DNA of 64,000 nucleotides, taken from Candidatus Hydrogenedentota bacterium. Its GTDB lineage: Bacteria; Hydrogenedentota; Hydrogenedentia; Hydrogenedentales; G963678445. This document shows positions 32,712 to 41,754 of the stretch, one piece after another. The position numbers were made by a program, and so were the translations under genes. The stretch lies in assembly GCA_963678445.1 (NCBI GenBank), contig OY782877.1, forward strand, positions 1,685,778-1,749,777. The letters are read 5' to 3'. The notes under the pieces are model-generated. The model was not told the origin of the DNA, made no database searches, and saw only the letters and a program-made list of their open reading frames with translations. How positions within the stretch are numbered: the first letter of the stretch is position 1; every line of letters starts with the position of its first letter.

Positions 32712-35700
32712 CTACAAGGCTTGCAAAGCGCTAATCAGCTGCGCCAATTCCACACGTGCCTTACTCAACAGGGCAGAATCCTGGGTAAAATGCTCGTTAT
32801 CCACAATAATCGCCTCATCAATCGCCAAGGCAGCTTCCACCTCTTTGCGCAGCGCTTCCGGCACCGCCGCTCCCTTGTTTTGCAGCAAGTTTCGCAACAA
32901 GGCGAAGTACTCGTAATCTTCGATACCGTCGCGGGCAATACTCATGCGAATAGAGGCCCAGGGCACGCCGTTGGGACCGGGATAAATGAGATAGCCACAC
33001 CCATGGTGGCCCGGCTGACTGTTCCAGGGCATCCAGGGGCGTTCAGGCCAGCGCTCTTCACCGCTCACGTTATCCGCCCAATGGGTCGTCCCCCAATAGA
33101 GATAGCCTTGCGCGCCATATTTCCAGCACTGCCAGAAGATAAGGCGGTGATCAATGGCAGGGAAATCAATCATGATGCCGGGGCGATCCCAAACGGTATA
33201 GAACCAAAGATTTTCGCCCGCCTCTTTGCGTAATGCAACCATGTTGGGATCAAATTCGCCAATGACCGGGCACCAGGTATCCACCCCGCCCACCAGCGCC
33301 TGCTCTGGAGCACTGGTCTCAAGGACAGGCCATTGCGGCAGATTTTCCTTCACCCACTGGTTCATTTCAAGCACCTGCGGGATGATGTGGCGCGCCATAA
33401 CCGCGACCTCATCGTGCGCATAATACAGGGCTTTGTCTTCCCAGCCCTTTTCCTTGAGCAACGCCTGGGTCGCAAGCACTTTTTCTTTGTACTCGTCGCG
33501 TCCAGAGCCGTCAAAAAGGTCTGGAATGGGGATAAAGAAACAATTCTGCCCATGCGCCATAAGGTATTCGAAATCTTCCAGCATGTTTCCGCCGCCAAGC
33601 GGGAAGTTTTTGATCGGACTCATGCGGTGCTTGAGGTGCAAATCATAAAAACGTTTGCGCACCTCAAAAGGCGTGCGTCCCTCATACTTGTAGAAACGCT
33701 GCACCTGGCTCTCTTTCATCCAGAACGAAGTCTTCAGCGTAGTTTGCTCAGGCAACGCAAAATCCCATACATCTACTTCAAGAGGAACATTCAGTGTACC
33801 CGCATTCGCCGTCGTCACCTTCAGCACGCCGCTGTATTTACCCGGAGCTGTGTCCGCATCGGTATGCACGGTGATATAAAACGGCTGCGCTTCTTGCGTG
33901 AAAGGCACGTCGAGCTGCGCGTTTGGTTCCAGTACATCCGGATAGAAGCCCACTTTTTCGATTGGAAAATTGTATTCTGGCTCGCCAATCTTCACATAGC
34001 CCACGCCATAGATTTCGATCTGATCGGCGCGCAAAACGGTATCGCCATCTTCCTGCTTAAGATCAACGGCCTGCACTGCAAGCTGATTGAGATCCTGCCA
34101 AAGCGGCACCACCACCAGTTGTGCAGATTCGTATTCGTTGCGTGCCAGCTGAATCTGGACCGGTTTAGGAGCTCGTTTTGTGGAAAGCAGTGCTTCATCC
34201 CGGAAAACCTTGCGCAAAGTCGTTTCCGGCACCGCGGCAAAAGCACCCGCTGTAGCAGGCGTGGCCGCCGCTGCATAAAGGCGCGCTACTTCACGGCGCA
34301 ACAGATCCAGCGCTCCTTGCACCTGCGCAATCATCGCCGCACCACCTTCTTGCGGCATGGCTTTCATCAAGGCGTCACTGGCAGCGTTCACCTGCTTTTC
34401 CAGGGAGCTATGGGCGGCAGCACGCACCGCTTCATCGGCCAGTTTTTCCATAGCGGCATAGCCATCCTGCGTCAGTGTTTGCAAGACTTTGTTTTCCGCC
34501 TCAAATGCATTAAACGTGGCCTCTTCCTCGACCACGCCCAGCAATTGGGCGCCACCCGTATCTACCAAACGCATCGCAAGCTGGTATTTGCCACCCGTAG
34601 CCGCGAACAAATCGAATGCCGCCTCTTTTGCTTCTCCCGGCGCACAGGTTTCGCTGACAACCTGGCTTACGACGCTACCATCCGGACGTGTAATCTCAGC
34701 AATGGTGTCCAAGCGACGCGGACGGATGCTCTGGTTGGCAAACTTAAAGCGTATACGGTTTTTACCTATCTTCAACGGCGCAAACTGCACCAGAGAAAGC
34801 GGCGCGTCGATTGCATCTACCGCCACCGCTGGTGCAGGGGTAAAGGCTGCACCGTGAACATTGCCCGACAACTGCGCATCGTGCGCCAGCATGGGCCAGG
34901 GCAGCTTTTCAGGGACATATTTCCCGCCTAAACTCAAACTGCGGACCGTGCGATCTTTACCGGTAAAAATAATCTCAACTTCACCATCCCCATCCACATC
35001 GCCCAAAGCAGGTGTCGTCAACGGCTGGGCCGTGGTTTTGAAATCCCACTCTTCTTCCCCCTGTGCAGAGAAACAAACCAAACGACTGGAGCGTGCGCAC
35101 ACGAGGATTTCGAGCTCGCCATCGCCATCTACATCGCCCACCGAAGGGCCTTGTACAATGCCGCCCAAACGCGCAGCACCGGCATCGGCCGCCCATAGCA
35201 ATTCTCCATTGCGAATACGATAAACGTGGCCGGATTTGTCGCCCGCAAGCACATCCAACATCCCTTTGCCCTCAAAATCAACCAGCGCAAATGAACAGGC
35301 GTTATCAATACTCCCCTTACCCTTGAACCGCCATTGTTCCTCCCCATTTTCCGCATCATAGGCAATCACCTGGAAATCTTCCGTCGCCGAAACCACCTCC
35401 AGACGCCCATTTCCATTCAAATCGCCCACCGCAACGTTACTACGGCGCTCTTTGCGGGGCTGTCCATCCATCTGTGACCAGACCAGATTGCCATCATGGT
35501 CAAAACAGGCCATCAACCCGCCGCCAAAGGTAATATAAACTCGCATTACCGGACTGTCACCCAGTTGTGCAACGGCAGGAATGCCACGGATCGCGCCGTC
35601 GGCCTGATAATGCCACAGGGCTTGTCCTGTATCATCAAGACAGTACAGTGTACCGCTTTCCGAACCAAAAAGAATCTCAATACGTCCATCCGCGTTGATG

Positions 35701-36137
35701 TCAGCAACCACAGGACCGGTATAATCCATCTCATCGCCCATGGAAACACGCCAGACAAGACGCCCCTGGTAATCCAGGCAACCCGCCGAACCATCACGGG
35801 TAAGGAAAAAGACTTCCTTTTTCCCATCACCGTCATAATCCACTACGGACGGTGTCGCATGAAAACCATCCAACACCTCTTCTTTCAGATGAAAATCCCA
35901 GCGTAAATTGCCTTGGCCATCAAAGCAAAGCATGCGACGCGCCCGTGAGGCAGCCACAATGATTTCCGTCGCCCCATCTCCGTCAATATCAGCAAGAACA
36001 GGCGAGGCGTAAATCTTGCCCCCCGTTTCATAGCTCCACTCCACCTCCGGCGCAACCGTTGCGGCTACGCCTGGCAGTGAAAAAAGGGGGGAAACACATA
36101 CCACTACGCAACACACATTTCGAAAAAATAGGTTCAT
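32712..36137 (-). CDS. Secreted FG-GAP/beta-propeller repeat protein with a C-terminal glycoside-hydrolase-like domain (1142 aa)
   Basis: Signal peptide at internal start MNLFFRNVCCVVVCVSPLFSLPGVAA (AGGAG RBS); about 8 DxDGDGxxE(I/V) FG-GAP/VCBS blades; C-terminal region is TIM-barrel-like (DUF4091-like, uncertain). Confidence 0.65.
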   Translation of the reverse strand: MNLFFRNVCCVVVCVSPLFSLPGVAATVAPEVEWSYETGGKIYASPVLADIDGDGATEIIVAASRARRMLCFDGQGNLRWDFHLKEEVLDGFHATPSVVDYDGDGKKEVFFLTRDGSAGCLDYQGRLVWRVSMGDEMDYTGPVVADINADGRIEILFGSESGTLYCLDDTGQALWHYQADGAIRGIPAVAQLGDSPVMRVYITFGGGLMACFDHDGNLVWSQMDGQPRKERRSNVAVGDLNGNGRLEVVSATEDFQVIAYDAENGEEQWRFKGKGSIDNACSFALVDFEGKGMLDVLAGDKSGHVYRIRNGELLWAADAGAARLGGIVQGPSVGDVDGDGELEILVCARSSRLVCFSAQGEEEWDFKTTAQPLTTPALGDVDGDGEVEIIFTGKDRTVRSLSLGGKYVPEKLPWPMLAHDAQLSGNVHGAAFTPAPAVAVDAIDAPLSLVQFAPLKIGKNRIRFKFANQSIRPRRLDTIAEITRPDGSVVSQVVSETCAPGEAKEAAFDLFAATGGKYQLAMRLVDTGGAQLLGVVEEEATFNAFEAENKVLQTLTQDGYAAMEKLADEAVRAAAHSSLEKQVNAASDALMKAMPQEGGAAMIAQVQGALDLLRREVARLYAAAATPATAGAFAAVPETTLRKVFRDEALLSTKRAPKPVQIQLARNEYESAQLVVVPLWQDLNQLAVQAVDLKQEDGDTVLRADQIEIYGVGYVKIGEPEYNFPIEKVGFYPDVLEPNAQLDVPFTQEAQPFYITVHTDADTAPGKYSGVLKVTTANAGTLNVPLEVDVWDFALPEQTTLKTSFWMKESQVQRFYKYEGRTPFEVRKRFYDLHLKHRMSPIKNFPLGGGNMLEDFEYLMAHGQNCFFIPIPDLFDGSGRDEYKEKVLATQALLKEKGWEDKALYYAHDEVAVMARHIIPQVLEMNQWVKENLPQWPVLETSAPEQALVGGVDTWCPVIGEFDPNMVALRKEAGENLWFYTVWDRPGIMIDFPAIDHRLIFWQCWKYGAQGYLYWGTTHWADNVSGEERWPERPWMPWNSQPGHHGCGYLIYPGPNGVPWASIRMSIARDGIEDYEYFALLRNLLQNKGAAVPEALRKEVEAALAIDEAIIVDNEHFTQDSALLSKARVELAQLISALQAL

Positions 36138-36368
36138 CTCTTTCTCCTGTTTATAGCAAGATCCAACCGTCCAAAATCTGTCGTATTGCAATTTCGCATT
36201 GTGACACGAATGTGTTTCAATATACAAAAAGCATGCCCGCGACCTTGACGGAGATGTAACCGACTTTATTTCAAGTACTTAACTTGCTCCCAACACTGTC
36301 TTTAAACCCGTTCAGCAGCTGAACCAACTCACACCCGCAAAGTCGCTAATGCCACCCCAAAAAATTGC

Positions 36369-36410: not shown

Positions 36411-36486
36411 TGCCGGCTAGCCAAATTGGTAAGGCACCAGTTTCTGGTACTGGCGATTCCAGGTTCGAGTCCTGGGCCGGCAGCCA
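36411..36486 (+). tRNA. tRNA-Gln (anticodon CUG)
   Basis: Cloverleaf folded by hand: acceptor tgccggc/gccggca with the U1:A72 pair typical of tRNA-Gln; anticodon stem ccagt/actgg; loop ttCTGgt; T-arm ggttcgagtcc; CCA encoded. Confidence 0.8.
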
Positions 36487-36522: not shown

Positions 36523-36598
36523 GGCCCCTTCATCTAGTGGTCTAGGATGCAGGATTCTCAGTCCTGTCACAGGGGTTCGAACCCCCTAGGGGCTGCCA
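36523..36598 (+). tRNA. tRNA-Glu (anticodon CUC)
   Basis: Acceptor ggcccct/aggggct; anticodon stem cagga/tcctg with loop ttCTCag; T-arm aggggttcgaacccct; CCA encoded. Confidence 0.8.
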
Positions 36599-36668: not shown

Positions 36669-36836
36669 TCAATCGCATTCCCCTGTAGACGCGTATCGGC
36701 TCGCCGTCCGCCCCCCCCTTGGGACGTACTGAAGCGATTTGATCCGTAACAAATCTCAAATTATGCTAACAGCGCTCTGTCTCTGATTAAAAAATGAAAG
36801 GAACCGTCCTTTACCCGATAGAGGTTGGTGGAAAGC

Positions 36837-38075
36837 ATGAAAATTCTCCATACATCGGATTGGCATTTGGGGCGCTCGCTTTATGGCAGGAAGCGCTATG
36901 AGGAGTTTGCAGCGTTCCTGGATTGGCTGGCGCAAACTATTGAGGATGAGCGCATTGATGCGCTGCTGGTAGCGGGGGATGTATTCGATACAAGCACACC
37001 GAGCAATCGGGCGCAGGAATTGTATTATCGCTTTCTCTGCCGGGTTTCTGCGTCTTGCTGCCGGCATGTTGTGGTTATTGCGGGGAATCATGATTCTCCG
37101 TCCTTCCTGGATGCACCCCGGGAATTGTTGCGTGTGCTGAATGTGCATGTGGTCGGCGCTATGGAGGCGGCTTTGGAGGATGAGGTCGTCGTTCTTTGGG
37201 ATGGGGAGAAACCGGAGGCGATTGTCTGCGCGGTGCCGTATCTGCGCGATAAGGATATTCGTACTGTTGAGGCGGGGGAGACTATCGACGATAAGAATGC
37301 CAAGCTGGTGGCGGGCTTGCAAAATCATTATGCGAAGGTATGCGCTGTTGCGGAGGAGAAGCGCGTTGCGTTTGAGAAAGCCGGGCACGGAGACATTCCC
37401 ATTGTTGCCATGGGACACCTCTTTACTGCGGGGGGGAAGACGATAGATGGCGACGGTGTCCGCGATCTTTATGTGGGGGCTTTGACGCATATAAACAAGG
37501 ACCTTTTCCCGGATTCAATCGATTATCTCGCGCTGGGACATTTGCATGTGCCGCAATCCGTTGGCGGCGCTGCGCATATCCGTTACAGTGGCGCGCCTAT
37601 ACCCATGGGGTATGGGGAGGCGAATCAGGTAAAGAAGGTAGTCCTGATTGAGTTCAACAGCACCACACCGGATATCCGGGAACTTCCTGTGCCGTGTTTC
37701 CAGGCTCTGGAACGTATCGTTGGCAACCTCAATGATATCCAGAACCGGATTGAGCAATTGAAAGGGAAAGAAAGTCGGGCCTGGCTTGAGATTGAATACA
37801 CGGGGCGCGAGGTCGTAGCTAATTTGCGGGAGGTATTGGATGAGGCCTTGGGGAATTCTGCCATGGAGATACGGCGAATCAAAAATAAACAGGTTGTCGA
37901 TCGCGTGATACATGCTATTGAGGCGCATGAAACGCTTGATGATCTGGCCCCCAGTGATGTCTTTAGCCGTTGCCTGGATGCGTTCGAGGTGCCCAATGCG
38001 GATCGGGAAGCGTTGGCGGTGGCTTATAACGAAATCCTCAAAGACTTGTTGGAGGATGACCGTAATGCTGAATAA
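36837..38075 (+). CDS. sbcD: Exonuclease SbcD (Mre11-family calcineurin-like phosphoesterase)
   Basis: MKILHTSDWHLG, GDVFD, VVIAGNHD, GHLH motifs; sigma-70-like promoter ttgatc N17 tatgct upstream. Confidence 0.9.
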   Translation: MKILHTSDWHLGRSLYGRKRYEEFAAFLDWLAQTIEDERIDALLVAGDVFDTSTPSNRAQELYYRFLCRVSASCCRHVVVIAGNHDSPSFLDAPRELLRVLNVHVVGAMEAALEDEVVVLWDGEKPEAIVCAVPYLRDKDIRTVEAGETIDDKNAKLVAGLQNHYAKVCAVAEEKRVAFEKAGHGDIPIVAMGHLFTAGGKTIDGDGVRDLYVGALTHINKDLFPDSIDYLALGHLHVPQSVGGAAHIRYSGAPIPMGYGEANQVKKVVLIEFNSTTPDIRELPVPCFQALERIVGNLNDIQNRIEQLKGKESRAWLEIEYTGREVVANLREVLDEALGNSAMEIRRIKNKQVVDRVIHAIEAHETLDDLAPSDVFSRCLDAFEVPNADREALAVAYNEILKDLLEDDRNAE

Positions 38076-38104
38076 TCCGCAGATTACACCGATGGACGCC
38101 GATT

Positions 38105-38512
38105 ATGTTTGAGAGAGATAAACAAACGTATGCAATAATCGGGGCCGCGATGACCGTTCATAGCAAACTGGGTTCTGGCTTTCTGGAAGCCGTCTATCAG
38201 GATGCGCTGGAAAGAGAGTTTCAGTTTCTGCAATTACCTTACAAAAGAGAGGTAAAATTACCGGTCTACTATCGGGGCGAACAGCTCGACAGTTATTATC
38301 AGGCAGATTTCATCTGTTTTGATTCTGTGATCGTTGAGTTAAAAGCGTTGCAGCGTTTATCTGGCAAGGAAGAAGCACAAGTTATCAATTACTTGAAAGC
38401 ATCAAATCTCCATCGCGCATTGTTGCTGAACTTTGGAACAACGAGCCTGCAGCATAAACGGCTGGTTTTTAATCTGCGGGAATCTGCGTCATCTGCGGAT
38501 GAAAAATCATGA
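38105..38512 (+). CDS. GxxExxY family protein (PD-(D/E)XK nuclease-like fold), 135 aa, between sbcD and sbcC
   Basis: Signature GFLEAVY plus downstream QADFICFDSVIVELK (D...E.K-like); stop overlaps the sbcC ATG (ATGA). Confidence 0.6.
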   Translation: MFERDKQTYAIIGAAMTVHSKLGSGFLEAVYQDALEREFQFLQLPYKREVKLPVYYRGEQLDSYYQADFICFDSVIVELKALQRLSGKEEAQVINYLKASNLHRALLLNFGTTSLQHKRLVFNLRESASSADEKS

Positions 38513-41500
38513 AAATCCTTGAACTTCGACTCAAAAATCTTAATTCGCTCTATGGGGAATGGTGCATCGACTTTTCGAATCCGGAATATGTTTCGAATGG
38601 TATTTTTGCATTGACTGGACCGACGGGGGCGGGTAAGTCGACTATTCTGGATGCTATTTGTCTGGCCTTGTATGGGGCAACTCCGCGCCTTGGCAGGATT
38701 ACGAAGAGTAGTAATGAACTCATGTCGCGTCAGACGGGTGAGTGCTATGCGGAGGTGGTGTTTAAATCGCAGGCGGGCCGCTTTCGTTGTCACTGGGAGC
38801 AGCGCCGTGCGCGAAAGAAGGCGGAGGGGAAGTTGCAGGATCAGGAGCATCAGATTGCGGATGCTGATACTGGCAAACCTATTGAAACTAAAAAGAGTCT
38901 GGTGCTCAAGGTTATTGAAGAGAAAACGGGAATGGACTTTGACCGTTTTACGCGATCGATTCTCTTGGCGCAAGGGGGCTTTGATACTTTCCTGAAGGCG
39001 GATGTGGAGGAAAAGTCGACTATCCTGGAACAAATCACCGGCACGGAGATTTATTCGGAGATATCCCGGCGTGTGCATGTGCGTCGGCAGGATGAGCGCA
39101 ATAAGCTGGAGCTGCTTCAGGCTGAAATCACGGGTATCGCGATTCTGGAGCCGGAGCAGGAAAGGGAAATCCAGCAGGATCTTGGGGCCAAGTTGGGTGA
39201 GGAAAGGGCGCTTGCGGACAAATGCACGGAAACGGGCAAGTGTATCGCATGGCTTGCTATTGTTGATGGACTCAAAAAGGAAATCCTGGATCTTAGTAAG
39301 GAAGCAGCTGGACTGCAGGAACGTACTGACGCTTTTAAGCCGGAGCAGGAGAAACTTGAACAGGCCATGCAGGCCGCTTCTATGGATGGCGAGTATGCAG
39401 CGCTTACAGCCCTACGCAGGCAGCAGGCGGACGATCAGGAAGCGTTGAAAGGGGGGGAGGCGGCCCTCCCTGAGTTGGAGTCTTCTGCAATTACCCAGGC
39501 GGAAGCGCTCAGAATGGCGGAACAGCACACGCTCAACGCCAAAGAAGCACTACAAGCAGCAGCGCCGCTTATCCGAAAGATTCGATCGCTCGACGAAAAA
39601 CTTGCTGCGGGGAAAAAGGCAATTTTGGAAGGCGACGAGTATTGTGCGCGGGGAGCGGCAAAGATTGATGAGGATAAGCAGGCTTGGCTGAAGGAACAGA
39701 AAAAGCGCACTGAGGCGAAGGAATCGCTTCGGGGGGTTGAGGACTGTCTCGATAAACATGCGCAGGATGAATGGCTGATCGGTGGTCTGGCCGGGGTTGA
39801 GGAACAGTTCGGTAATCTGCTTTCCAAACAGCGGGAAATCGCTCAGAAAGAGAACGCTCTAAGGGATGCCGATATCGCGTTGGTACAGGCGACAGAGAAA
39901 CTCAAAGTCACTACAAAACGGTGCAACATCTGCGAGCAGGAACTCAACGATGCGACGAAAAAGCTCCAGCAGGGTAAGGATGCATTGCTCGAAGTGCTGG
40001 GAGACCGGTTATTGCGAGAATACCGCGCGGAAAAGGAATCACTGCTTCGTGAACGGGCATACATCAGAAAAATTGAAGCGCTTGAGGAACACCGTGCCCA
40101 GCTGGAAGATGGCAAGCCGTGCCCGCTCTGTGGTTCAACCGAGCATCCGTTTGCAGAGGGAAATGTACCGGTGCCTGATGAAATTGAGCAGAAGATTTCT
40201 TCCCTCGACAAACTGATCTCCAAAGCGGAAGAGCTGGAAGCTGTCGTCAAAAAACTGGAACAGGAAGAAACTTCTGCTCGCAACTATCTGAATGACAGCG
40301 AGAAGCTGCAAAGCAATGTCGCTAATGATAAGAAAGTTGCTGAAAAGACCTTGGCGGAATTAGGGGAAGAGCTGGCGAAACTCCGAAGTCATTTTGAGGA
40401 ATTAAAACGGGCAGTATCCGGGAAGCTACAGCCACTTGGCATTGCAAAAATACCGGATGACGATGTTTCTTCTCTGCTTGCGTCACTCAAGGCGCGTCTG
40501 AATGCATGGCAGGAGCAGGTTCGAAAAAAGACGGAAATCGAAAAACAGATTGCAAGCATCGATAGCGAAATCAAACGACTGGATGCGATCATTGAGACGC
40601 AAAGCACCGCCTTGACTGAAAAGCAAGAGGCATTGGATGGGCTCAAAAAAGAACACGCTACAGACCTTGACAAGCGCAGGAATTTGTATGAGGACAAAAA
40701 GCCGGACGAGGAAGAAATCCGTCTGAACAAAGCTATTGCTGATGCTGAAAATGTCGAGAAGACGGCCAGAAGCCGGAACGTTGAATTGCAGCAGAAACTG
40801 ACGTCTTCACGAACGCATGTGGAATCTCTGAGGATGCGTATTGAGCAAAGAGCGCCTGAATTGAGAAAGGAGGAGTGCGATTTTGCAGCAGCACTTGAAC
40901 CGGTTGGCTTTGCTGATGAGGGTCGGTTTCTTGAGGCGCGCCTGACGCATCAGGAACGGGAAGCGTTGTCTGCCCGAGCAAAGGAGCTGGAACATGCGCA
41001 AACAGTGCTCAGGGCCAAACAGCATGATCGGGAAGCGCGTTTATCCGTAGAAATTGCGAAAGAGGTTACGGACAAAACGCTTGAGACGTTGGAGCCGCAA
41101 CTCAGGGAGTATGAGGATTCTCTGAAACAACTGCGAGAGACCATCGCTGCGCTTAAACACCGGCTAGAGGAGAATGCAACGTCAAGGGAGCGAATAAAGG
41201 AGAAGGAGGCCACCATAGAAGCGCAGAGAGAAGAGAGCCGTCGGTGGGACAATCTGCATACGCTGATCGGTTCTGCGGATGGAAAGAAGTATCGCAACTT
41301 TGCACAGGGGTTGACGTTTGATTTAATGGTGTCGCATGCGAACCGTCAGTTGGAAAAAATGAGTGACCGATACCTTCTCATCCGGGACCATGAAAATCCC
41401 CTGGAGTTGAATGTGGTCGACAATTATCAAGCGGGAGAAATCCGCTCGACTAAGAATCTGTCTGGTGGGGAAAGCTTTATTGTCAGCCTCACGCTTGCGC

Positions 41501-41754
41501 TGGGACTTTCCAAGATGGCCAGCCGCAAAGTACGTGTGGATTCGTTGTTTCTGGACGAAGGTTTTGGCACTCTGGATGAGGAAGCGCTGGAAACGGCGTT
41601 GGAAACCTTGTCGGGACTGCAACAGGACGGCAAGCTGATTGGTATTATTTCGCACATCGCTGCGCTGCGGGAACGGATCAGCACACAAATCCGTGTGGAA
41701 CCTGCATCGGAGGGGAAAAGCCTGTTGTCGGGGCCGGGATGTTGTAAGAAGTAG
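38509..41754 (+). CDS. sbcC: Exonuclease SbcC (Rad50/SMC-like ATPase)
   Basis: Walker A GPTGAGKST, long coiled coil, zinc-hook CPLCGS, ABC signature LSGGESFIVSLTLAL, Walker B/D-loop LFLDEGFGTLD. Confidence 0.9.
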   Translation: MKILELRLKNLNSLYGEWCIDFSNPEYVSNGIFALTGPTGAGKSTILDAICLALYGATPRLGRITKSSNELMSRQTGECYAEVVFKSQAGRFRCHWEQRRARKKAEGKLQDQEHQIADADTGKPIETKKSLVLKVIEEKTGMDFDRFTRSILLAQGGFDTFLKADVEEKSTILEQITGTEIYSEISRRVHVRRQDERNKLELLQAEITGIAILEPEQEREIQQDLGAKLGEERALADKCTETGKCIAWLAIVDGLKKEILDLSKEAAGLQERTDAFKPEQEKLEQAMQAASMDGEYAALTALRRQQADDQEALKGGEAALPELESSAITQAEALRMAEQHTLNAKEALQAAAPLIRKIRSLDEKLAAGKKAILEGDEYCARGAAKIDEDKQAWLKEQKKRTEAKESLRGVEDCLDKHAQDEWLIGGLAGVEEQFGNLLSKQREIAQKENALRDADIALVQATEKLKVTTKRCNICEQELNDATKKLQQGKDALLEVLGDRLLREYRAEKESLLRERAYIRKIEALEEHRAQLEDGKPCPLCGSTEHPFAEGNVPVPDEIEQKISSLDKLISKAEELEAVVKKLEQEETSARNYLNDSEKLQSNVANDKKVAEKTLAELGEELAKLRSHFEELKRAVSGKLQPLGIAKIPDDDVSSLLASLKARLNAWQEQVRKKTEIEKQIASIDSEIKRLDAIIETQSTALTEKQEALDGLKKEHATDLDKRRNLYEDKKPDEEEIRLNKAIADAENVEKTARSRNVELQQKLTSSRTHVESLRMRIEQRAPELRKEECDFAAALEPVGFADEGRFLEARLTHQEREALSARAKELEHAQTVLRAKQHDREARLSVEIAKEVTDKTLETLEPQLREYEDSLKQLRETIAALKHRLEENATSRERIKEKEATIEAQREESRRWDNLHTLIGSADGKKYRNFAQGLTFDLMVSHANRQLEKMSDRYLLIRDHENPLELNVVDNYQAGEIRSTKNLSGGESFIVSLTLALGLSKMASRKVRVDSLFLDEGFGTLDEEALETALETLSGLQQDGKLIGIISHIAALRERISTQIRVEPASEGKSLLSGPGCCKK

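Follow-up and report, generated by a model that had tools for sequence, protein, structure and literature searches.

Within the 64,000-nt stretch of Candidatus Hydrogenedentota contig OY782877.1 analysed here (the window), a small gene of the GxxExxY family, also called PDDEXK_3, lies between sbcD and sbcC and forms, together with two inverted arms, the compact inserted element that is the subject of this work (Table 1). The original prediction, made from the letters alone, had placed the gene at this position with its stop codon overlapping the sbcC start, and both the coordinates and the profile matches confirm it: the tetranucleotide ATGA at 38509-38512 is GxxExxY stop and sbcC start in one, and the flanking products match the profiles NF008206 and TIGR00619 (SbcD) and NF007600 and TIGR00618 (SbcC). 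On the upstream side, 29 nt (38076-38104) separate sbcD from the open reading frame (ORF). A leader mini-ORF has its ATG (38065) within the final sbcD codons; its frame crosses the 5' arm, and its stop (38110-38112) lies 5 nt beyond the GxxExxY ATG. This split form is common to the window and to loci L001, L004, L084 and L107 (loci of relatives are labelled L001, L002 and so on; L001 is a 20-kb locus of a relative whose protein is 98% identical to that of the window). In relatives with a 147-aa product, the mini-ORF frame is fused to the GxxExxY ORF, and the ATG lies in the last sbcD codons (ATGCTGAATAA).

Table 1. Features of the sbcD-sbcC region, in window coordinates
Feature	Coordinates	Strand	Remarks
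sbcD	36825..38075	+	416 aa; TAA stop 38073-38075 abuts the element
Leader mini-ORF (MLNNPQITPMDADYV)	38065..38112	+	15 codons; read from the sequence; putatively translated
Whole inserted element, arm to arm	38075..38500	+	426 bp
5' arm	38075-38103	+	ATCCGCAGAT TA CACCGAT GGA CGCCGAT; first base is the last base of the sbcD stop
GxxExxY / PDDEXK_3 ORF	38105..38512	+	135 aa; domain at residues 6-121
3' arm	38472-38500	+	ATCTGCG GGA ATCTGCG TC ATCTGCGGAT; in the C-terminal tail of the ORF, past the Pfam domain; encodes NLRESASSAD
sbcC	38509..41754	+	1081 aa; ATG overlaps the GxxExxY stop

A scan of the sbcD-sbcC junction found no promoter-like site and no convincing terminator-like site, the sole hit there, at 38272-38289 within the ORF, being a stem of 5 pairs followed by a weak T tail. 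The scan thus agrees with co-transcription without proving it, and the overlapping codons make translational coupling at both ends of the ORF plausible. The Shine-Dalgarno (SD)-like GGA of sbcC falls within the last repeat of the 3' arm. The GC content of the element is 44.8%, against 52.5% in the window.

The product of the ORF scores 139.3 bits against the NCBIfam profile TIGR04256 GxxExxY (cut-off 35; residues 7-121) and 133.2 bits against Pfam PF13366 PDDEXK_3 (cut-off 22). In the signature G25-F-L-E28-A-V-Y31, residues G25, E28 and Y31 are invariant, and over 57 homologues the invariant set comprises E28, D68, E78, K80, Q92 and Y96. D68 and E78-L-K80, on strands 2 and 3, make up the D...ExK core, and the helix that follows the ExK strand carries a QxxxY motif, Q92-V-I-N-Y96. 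The AlphaFold (AF2) model, with a predicted local distance difference test score (pLDDT) of 89.8, has a PD-(D/E)XK core of the alpha-beta-beta-beta-alpha-beta type, with helices at residues 6-22, 28-42 and 87-100 and strands at 46-56, 59-71, 75-80, 104-109 and 116-121; tail residues 126-135 are predicted to be disordered. Its best Foldseek match in the PDB is Cas4 SSO0001 (E = 3e-4, TM 0.50-0.56), and other matches include the AddAB and AdnAB nuclease domains, lambda exonuclease, MGME1 and RecE; a sequence search of the PDB returned no hit at E up to 10. The modelled fold, the Foldseek matches and the invariant catalytic residues bear out the PD-(D/E)XK core that had been proposed. The four-cysteine Fe-S set is absent, only C71 being conserved, and no PADLOC defence family matched the ORF. 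Judged from the model, the protein is a minimal RecB/Cas4-like domain and not a Cas4, with a predicted nuclease activity.

Inverted arms and ORF-less derivatives

An imperfect inverted repeat of 31 nt flanks the ORF on both sides, with 24 of the 31 positions complementary, a value reached in none of 300 dinucleotide shuffles of the region (maximum 22). Each 29-nt arm consists of three heptamers with the sequence CGCAGAT (ATCTGCG on the other strand), spaced ~10 bp apart. In the window, the second and third heptamers of the 5' arm together carry 3 mismatches to this family consensus, without a compensating change in the 3' arm. Because the element is single within 64 kb and its 5' arm is partly decayed, the window copy is probably a resident one and not actively spreading.

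Scanning metagenomes with the window protein yielded 80 loci at 62-86% identity, which became 84 when genome loci were added, and in 68 of the 84 both arms were found within 9 mismatches of 29 and at fixed offsets from the ORF core. Where translated in the family frames, the 5' arm reads NPQITQMDAD and the 3' arm NLRESAQSAD. The DNA motif of the arms is preserved regardless of the frame in which it is translated, and even where it is untranslated; the constraint therefore acts on nucleotides. Third-position conservation of the ten codons in the 3'-arm tail ranges from 0.5 to 1.0 and is at least 0.93 at eight of them, the average for the ORF core being 0.65.

More distant GxxExxY genes (27-40% identity) keep the three-repeat layout with its ~10-bp spacing and have different heptamers: CACGAAT in L002, a 40%-identical gene that also occupies an sbcD-sbcC junction (arms of 30 nt, 93% complementary); CACAGAG in Bernardetia (L164; 28 nt, 86%) and Bacteroides finegoldii (L165; 30 nt, 90%); and CGCGAAG in Sphingomonas (L166; 25 nt, 92%). 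A Treponema locus (L162) has arms of 16 nt, 88% complementary. Arms and protein clade change together between lineages, and the ORF product would on that ground be the natural reader of the arms. The two GxxExxY genes sampled from Fusobacteria and Prevotella showed no arms. On a Gemmatirosa plasmid (L175, 763-846), a GxxExxY gene is closely followed by a perfect 21-nt hairpin (GAACCGCAGAGGACGCAGAGG and its complement, at a distance of 42 nt); a matching arm was not seen upstream of that gene.

Both the minimum free energy and the centroid folds of 38066-38520 close the element through an outer 10-bp block (z = -2.4). Over 58 distinct pairs of arms from the CGCAGAT clade, however, pairing was 83.9%, against 84.0% in shuffled pairs, and double changes were not enriched; at the spacer positions of the arms, 67-81% of sequences lack pairing. 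Selection of the stem for pairing was consequently dropped as the principal interpretation, there being no covariation signal above the shuffles. Since no covariation exceeds what column composition gives, the alignments favour sequence-specific recognition, in which the arms would act as inverted arrays of a conserved word, in the manner of binding sites.

The arm motif also occurs 110 times in the fetched loci away from any GxxExxY ORF, and three ORF-less forms can be distinguished. One is a compact hairpin made of 5' arm, loop and 3' arm. Another consists of tandem arrays of CGCAGAT hairpins beside GxxExxY genes (L156 3790-5160, L153 2274-2757 and L138 3524-3864), with units of 121-172 nt; a CRISPR-like reading of these arrays was rejected, as the 'spacers' are themselves repeated and the arrays are tandem duplications. 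The third is found inside SbcD of relatives, where in-frame inserts occur at three sites, after approximately residues 123, 195 and 290 of the window SbcD, in L004, L009, L087, L090, L092, L095 and L096, adding the peptides NPQISQMDAD, NLRKSAQSAD and PQISQMDADK..ICENLRNLRI. The window SbcD itself has no such inserts. All solo arms in these loci lie within sbcD and none in the DNA upstream of it, and two weaker hits, with two mismatches, fall in sbcC (L090 and L095). With the ORF and 600 nt to either side excluded, loci selected for GxxExxY contain 15.8 arm motifs per 100 kb, compared with 0.57 per 100 kb in loci selected for SbcD that lack the gene and 0 in the window. At the third insert site, the SbcD of L083 carries PRMETNTHES...ISVNSCALVV, which resembles a hairpin of the CACGAAT type (the arm type of L002); judged from these peptides, two repeat families have apparently hit the same SbcD loop.

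Occupied junctions, inheritance and movement

In a survey of 80 species-representative sbcCD loci, 57 of the 76 evaluable sbcD-sbcC junctions measured 40 nt or less, in agreement with the original view that the two genes are normally adjacent. Given that this junction is normally tight, the GxxExxY gene is to be regarded as an insertion. Only two of the 80 loci (L002 and L004) carry a GxxExxY gene in the junction, two others (L003 and L009) carry a RhuM gene, and one (L053) a scar. The empty junctions of sbcCD relatives consist of the stop codon, 11-14 nt and ATG, and occupied ones read TAA / TCCGCAGAT...ATCTGCGGAT / GAAAAATC-ATG. Filled and empty states were also found elsewhere: the junction between radA and an FAD-protein gene contains the element in B. 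finegoldii and a 13-nt spacer in P. distasonis, and that between fabD and fabG is filled in S. parapaucimobilis and empty in S. paeninsulae. In L053, the 5' arm and first codons are fused to the last 5 nt, leaving a deletion scar, and in L009 the 3' arm stands alone beside the RhuM gene. An additional partial 5' arm is present in L004 and L087, and additional arm material at the 3' end in L098 and L101. The words TGAATAA and TGAAAAA at the two ends of the window copy were considered as a target-site duplication and rejected, as they are not reproduced in other occupied junctions.

Small accessory genes have landed repeatedly in the junction between sbcD and sbcC. Its RhuM-family genes are truncated in L003 (4256-4734) and full-length in L009 (1466-2544) and L092 (2863-4000), the last of these junctions holding RhuM and GxxExxY together. 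Three Marinobacterium junctions of ~1 kb (L036, L047 and L050) contain an ORF of ~310-350 aa on the opposite strand, by appearance a candidate EamA/DMT-type membrane protein, and the 1260-nt junction of L019 contains a 345-aa minus-strand ORF; these are unrelated to GxxExxY. In the Methylomarinum locus L002, a partial GxxExxY homologue (16-324; 47% identity) lies ~7 kb upstream of the copy in the sbcCD junction.

The gene was found between sbcD and sbcC in seventeen loci (L083-L092, L094-L096, L098, L101, L107 and the genome locus L004), and in L093 sbcC is present and the sequence ends before the upstream side. Many relatives thus carry the gene in their sbcCD operons, and these copies form a clade of their own; the absence from such operons that would have spoken against the original prediction is not observed. 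The copies resident in this junction are 70-86% identical to that of the window; all loci at 79% identity or more are of this kind except L082, and almost all lower hits lie elsewhere. Across 16 occupied loci, pairwise identities of SbcD and GxxExxY correlate (r = 0.67), and in 96% of pairs GxxExxY is better conserved than SbcD. The ratio of nonsynonymous to synonymous substitution (dN/dS) is 0.058 for GxxExxY and 0.106 for sbcD, with dS saturated in both (~1.5). On the neighbour-joining (NJ) tree of SbcD, the occupied loci fall in one sub-clade, with empty, scar and RhuM-only loci nested inside it. The nesting on the tree, the co-divergence and the saturated dS together point to one old acquisition, followed by co-inheritance with the operon and occasional loss. 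Since named homologues come from Chlorobiaceae, Zetaproteobacteria, Desulfobacter, Desulfuromonadaceae, Methylomarinum and others, the operon and its insert must have crossed phyla.

Close relatives of the sbcCD-resident gene, with proteins 86-88% identical to that of the window, were also found in other operons, namely between a BrxC/PglY-like gene and a DNA methylase gene in L082, L171 and L172 and between SNF2 helicase and DUF4391 genes in L173. On the GxxExxY NJ tree, these four and L097 are nested in the sbcCD clade, with L173 (87% identity) as sister of the window pair. L172, from the BrxC context, and L087, from the sbcCD context, have in common a composite 5' end made of a remnant arm, TTATGATAA... 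and a second arm, and the whole unit has therefore moved between operons. The relatives of lower identity are mostly co-oriented within operons, where methylases, ResIII/SNF2 helicases, HsdR/S, DUF6079, SMC and RecC are common among the neighbours; further neighbours include Dak1/Dak2 and PAP2, as well as ade and fab genes in plasmid records. A scan of viral contigs found no relative, and PHROGs gave only a hit at 0.0066.

The nearest relatives of the window SbcD belong to other phyla (Methylomarinum, Myxococcales and Desulfobacula; 70-76% identity), and two tRNA genes, tRNA-Gln(CTG) at 36411-36486 (+) and tRNA-Glu(CTC) at 36523-36598 (+), lie ~230 nt upstream of sbcD; on these grounds, the sbcD-GxxExxY-sbcC block may be a horizontally acquired insert beside tRNA genes. 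These two tRNAs were the only Rfam matches in the whole window, the region itself giving nothing beyond a sub-threshold isrN match. Further upstream lies an ORF of 1171 aa (32712-36227, -), the L001 counterpart of which has precomputed Pfam annotations for FG-GAP, beta-propeller and GH123; according to the precomputed annotation, fucosidase genes are found near that locus in L001.

Weighing the explanations

We lean slightly towards the view that the ORF encodes the nuclease of a small mobile element, palindromic in structure and long resident in the operon, and not an SbcCD-specific subunit. An element of ~426 bp would have entered the sbcD-sbcC junction of an ancestral sbcCD operon and would then have been inherited with it, including across phyla. 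The protein, probably oligomeric, would recognise the heptamer arrays of its own arms, whose spacing would correspond to one helical turn between heptamers, and would cut at or near these arms or at ORF-less hairpin copies. Such cutting could drive the copying or maintenance of the element and of its non-autonomous hairpin derivatives, in a system analogous to REPIN-RAYT, with a PD-(D/E)XK enzyme replacing the HUH transposase. The insertion may have been tolerated because the reading continuity of the operon was kept, the start or mini-ORF overlapping the sbcD stop and the ORF's own stop overlapping the sbcC start. The original prediction had offered an accessory nuclease, a regulator of SbcCD and a selfish insertion; the last of these fares best in view of the inverted repeats, the many unrelated junctions and the filled and empty orthologous sites.

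Several observations weigh against the mobile-element interpretation. The nuclease, binding and transposition activities of GxxExxY family members are so far predictions, and the 64-kb window contains no GxxExxY paralogue and no further arm copy or solo hairpin. The ends of occupied junctions show no consistent target-site duplication, in comparisons too diverged to exclude a short one, and no recent insertion polymorphism was found, the filled and empty sites compared all being from different genera. The NJ trees are built on ~130 residues and carry no support values, and co-divergence with SbcD together with the higher conservation would also be expected of a co-opted host function. In addition, three of five sampled genes for four-helix-bundle proteins (annotated as 'S23 ribosomal' or '23S rRNA intervening sequence (IVS) protein') are likewise flanked by inverted short-tandem-repeat arrays, with periods of 8, 14 and 7 nt in the plasmid records L174, L177 and L178, respectively. 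The flanked-ORF layout is accordingly broader than GxxExxY, and because the flanked four-helix-bundle proteins are not nucleases, the ORFs could be cargo moved by something else. This lowers our confidence in the nuclease as the mobilising enzyme and suggests that small ORFs framed by repeat arrays make up a wider class. Another four-helix-bundle gene, located between cas6 and cas4 in L176, has no flanking arrays.

Strong purifying selection favours some function, and one candidate, which we consider rather unlikely, is that of a co-opted accessory nuclease. After a selfish arrival, the sbcCD-resident lineage would now work with SbcCD, providing RecB/Cas4-like end processing after hairpin or end cleavage and being made in step through the overlapping codons. 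Such a role would suit a dedicated clade that occupies the junction over many lineages, diverges together with SbcD and has a dN/dS below that of sbcD (dS being saturated), as well as the overlaps at both ends of the 147-aa forms, the fold like that of end-processing nucleases, and the relatives that adjoin RecC, SMC and RadA. However, 76 of the 80 species-representative sbcCD operons do without any GxxExxY gene, and the losses in L053, with its scar, and L009, with the 3' arm only, left sbcCD intact. Some copies nested within the clade belong to BrxC-methylase and SNF2-DUF4391 operons, fab, dak and ade operons harbour other members of the family, and a cofactor of SbcCD would not need arms constrained at the nucleotide level. 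The stricter notion of an obligate third SbcCD subunit was rejected for want of general co-occurrence (2/80 junctions with GxxExxY).

An RNA-level cassette resembling the intervening sequences of 23S rRNA appears improbable. In such a cassette, the arms would pair in the transcript, serving RNase III processing or the gating of sbcC translation, and the ORF product would be secondary. The predicted folds closed by the outer block are in its favour, as are arms that in other lineages are 86-93% complementary with their spacers included, the similarly flanked genes of the four-helix-bundle IVS-protein family, and the position of the SD-like GGA of sbcC; yet covariation does not exceed that of shuffles, mismatches go uncompensated, in the window as elsewhere, spacers are largely unpaired, and no Rfam family matches. 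It would also leave the low dN/dS of the protein (0.06), the solo arms and the half-arms unexplained. That the ORF is an inert relic, its frame preserved solely by the uncoupling of sbcC translation that a nonsense mutation would bring about, is very improbable: the overlapping stop and start codons and the decayed 5' arm of the window would agree with it, but selection for an open frame alone would not give a dN/dS of 0.058 or catalytic residues invariant over 57 homologues. We give equally little credence to an independent gene for defence or addiction, for example a toxin-like nuclease, that accumulates in defence islands. Many relatives do lie in restriction-modification or BREX-like operons, but PADLOC yielded no match, no partner ORF resembling an antitoxin is present, many copies lie in housekeeping operons and none was found in the viral contigs scanned. 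A homing endonuclease gene was also rejected, there being no intron or intein and many unrelated flanking contexts.

Related systems and significance

23S rRNA intervening sequences form RNase III stems and, like the element described here, can hold a small ORF enclosed by inverted ends and inserted in a transcribed unit; here, in contrast, the host site is an mRNA operon junction and not an rRNA helix, the ORF encodes a putative nuclease, and pairing covariation is lacking. Rickettsia palindromic elements, said to have been reported by Ogata et al. in 2000, are reportedly inserted in frame in protein-coding genes. With them and with prokaryotic MITEs (miniature inverted-repeat transposable elements), the family has in common short palindromic repeats in frame in coding genes, as in the SbcD of relatives; it differs in that a cognate ORF-carrying version exists, target-site duplication is not evident and the window has no solo element. 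Classical insertion sequences and MITEs also possess terminal inverted repeats, and the element encodes no DDE, HUH or serine/tyrosine recombinase. The analogy already drawn is with RAYTs, small enzyme genes flanked by inverted REP copies, with dispersed doublets, type-specific pairing and long persistence under purifying selection (PMC3337134). A gene flanked by inverted repeats, ORF-less doublets, a repeat type proper to each enzyme and purifying selection are likewise found in relatives of the present gene, the window itself having the two flanking arms only. This is an analogy and not membership, as the GxxExxY enzyme is of the PD-(D/E)XK type, RecB/Cas4-like, whereas RAYT is an HUH/Y1 (IS200-like) transposase. 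Its arms, too, are arrays of three heptamers ~10 bp apart in place of single REP palindromes, the gene is located within operons and overlaps its neighbours at start and stop codons, and its lineage has moved between operons and phyla.

With regard to the protein, the E...D...ExK core and QxxxY helix are those of Cas4 and RecB nucleases (SSO0001, AddB, AdnAB, lambda exonuclease), a resemblance of structure only; GxxExxY proteins have ~120 residues and lack both the four-cysteine Fe-S cluster and a link to CRISPR or helicases. TnsA of Tn7, Rpn/YhgA and PDDEXK_2 provide precedents for restriction-endonuclease-fold proteins in DNA mobility, from which the GxxExxY protein differs in having no detectable sequence relation, no partner transposase and a far smaller element. 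PF12784 is listed as a 'putative transposase' and GxxExxY/PDDEXK_3 as 'Unknown' (PMC3424549). The latter family is very large, with at least 7,900 clusters matched.

The inverted arms, the ORF-less hairpins and the co-divergence with SbcD are new beyond the original prediction. The literature searched, which was incomplete, so that a prior description is possible, contained no description of the arms, of the hairpins derived from them or of the clade resident in sbcCD operons, and nothing relevant on the repeat peptides or on PDDEXK proteins in connection with MITEs or intervening sequences.

A broader proposal, which we offer tentatively and hold to be less probable than the mobile-element interpretation of the window copy, is that GxxExxY proteins are the dedicated enzymes of widespread, unnamed palindromic elements with heptamer arrays, a second, non-HUH counterpart of REPIN-RAYT. 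The hairpins of these elements would spread without the ORF, in some cases into proteins such as SbcD with the frame maintained. The sbcCD-resident lineage would then be a long-lived source copy, and its position in the operon may not be accidental, as SbcCD might process the hairpin DNA of the element or need to be restrained from it.

For a family of no assigned function, these results lead to a concrete proposal, namely that the protein binds and cuts its own arms. The mobile-element interpretation would account for small genes wedged between operon partners, and also for low-complexity tails (NLRESAQSAD, PQITQMDAD and ICENLRNLRI) and for length variation in SbcD. At the same time, a clade of sbcCD operons with a third, strongly conserved nuclease gene over several phyla makes that gene a candidate for a role in hairpin or end processing.

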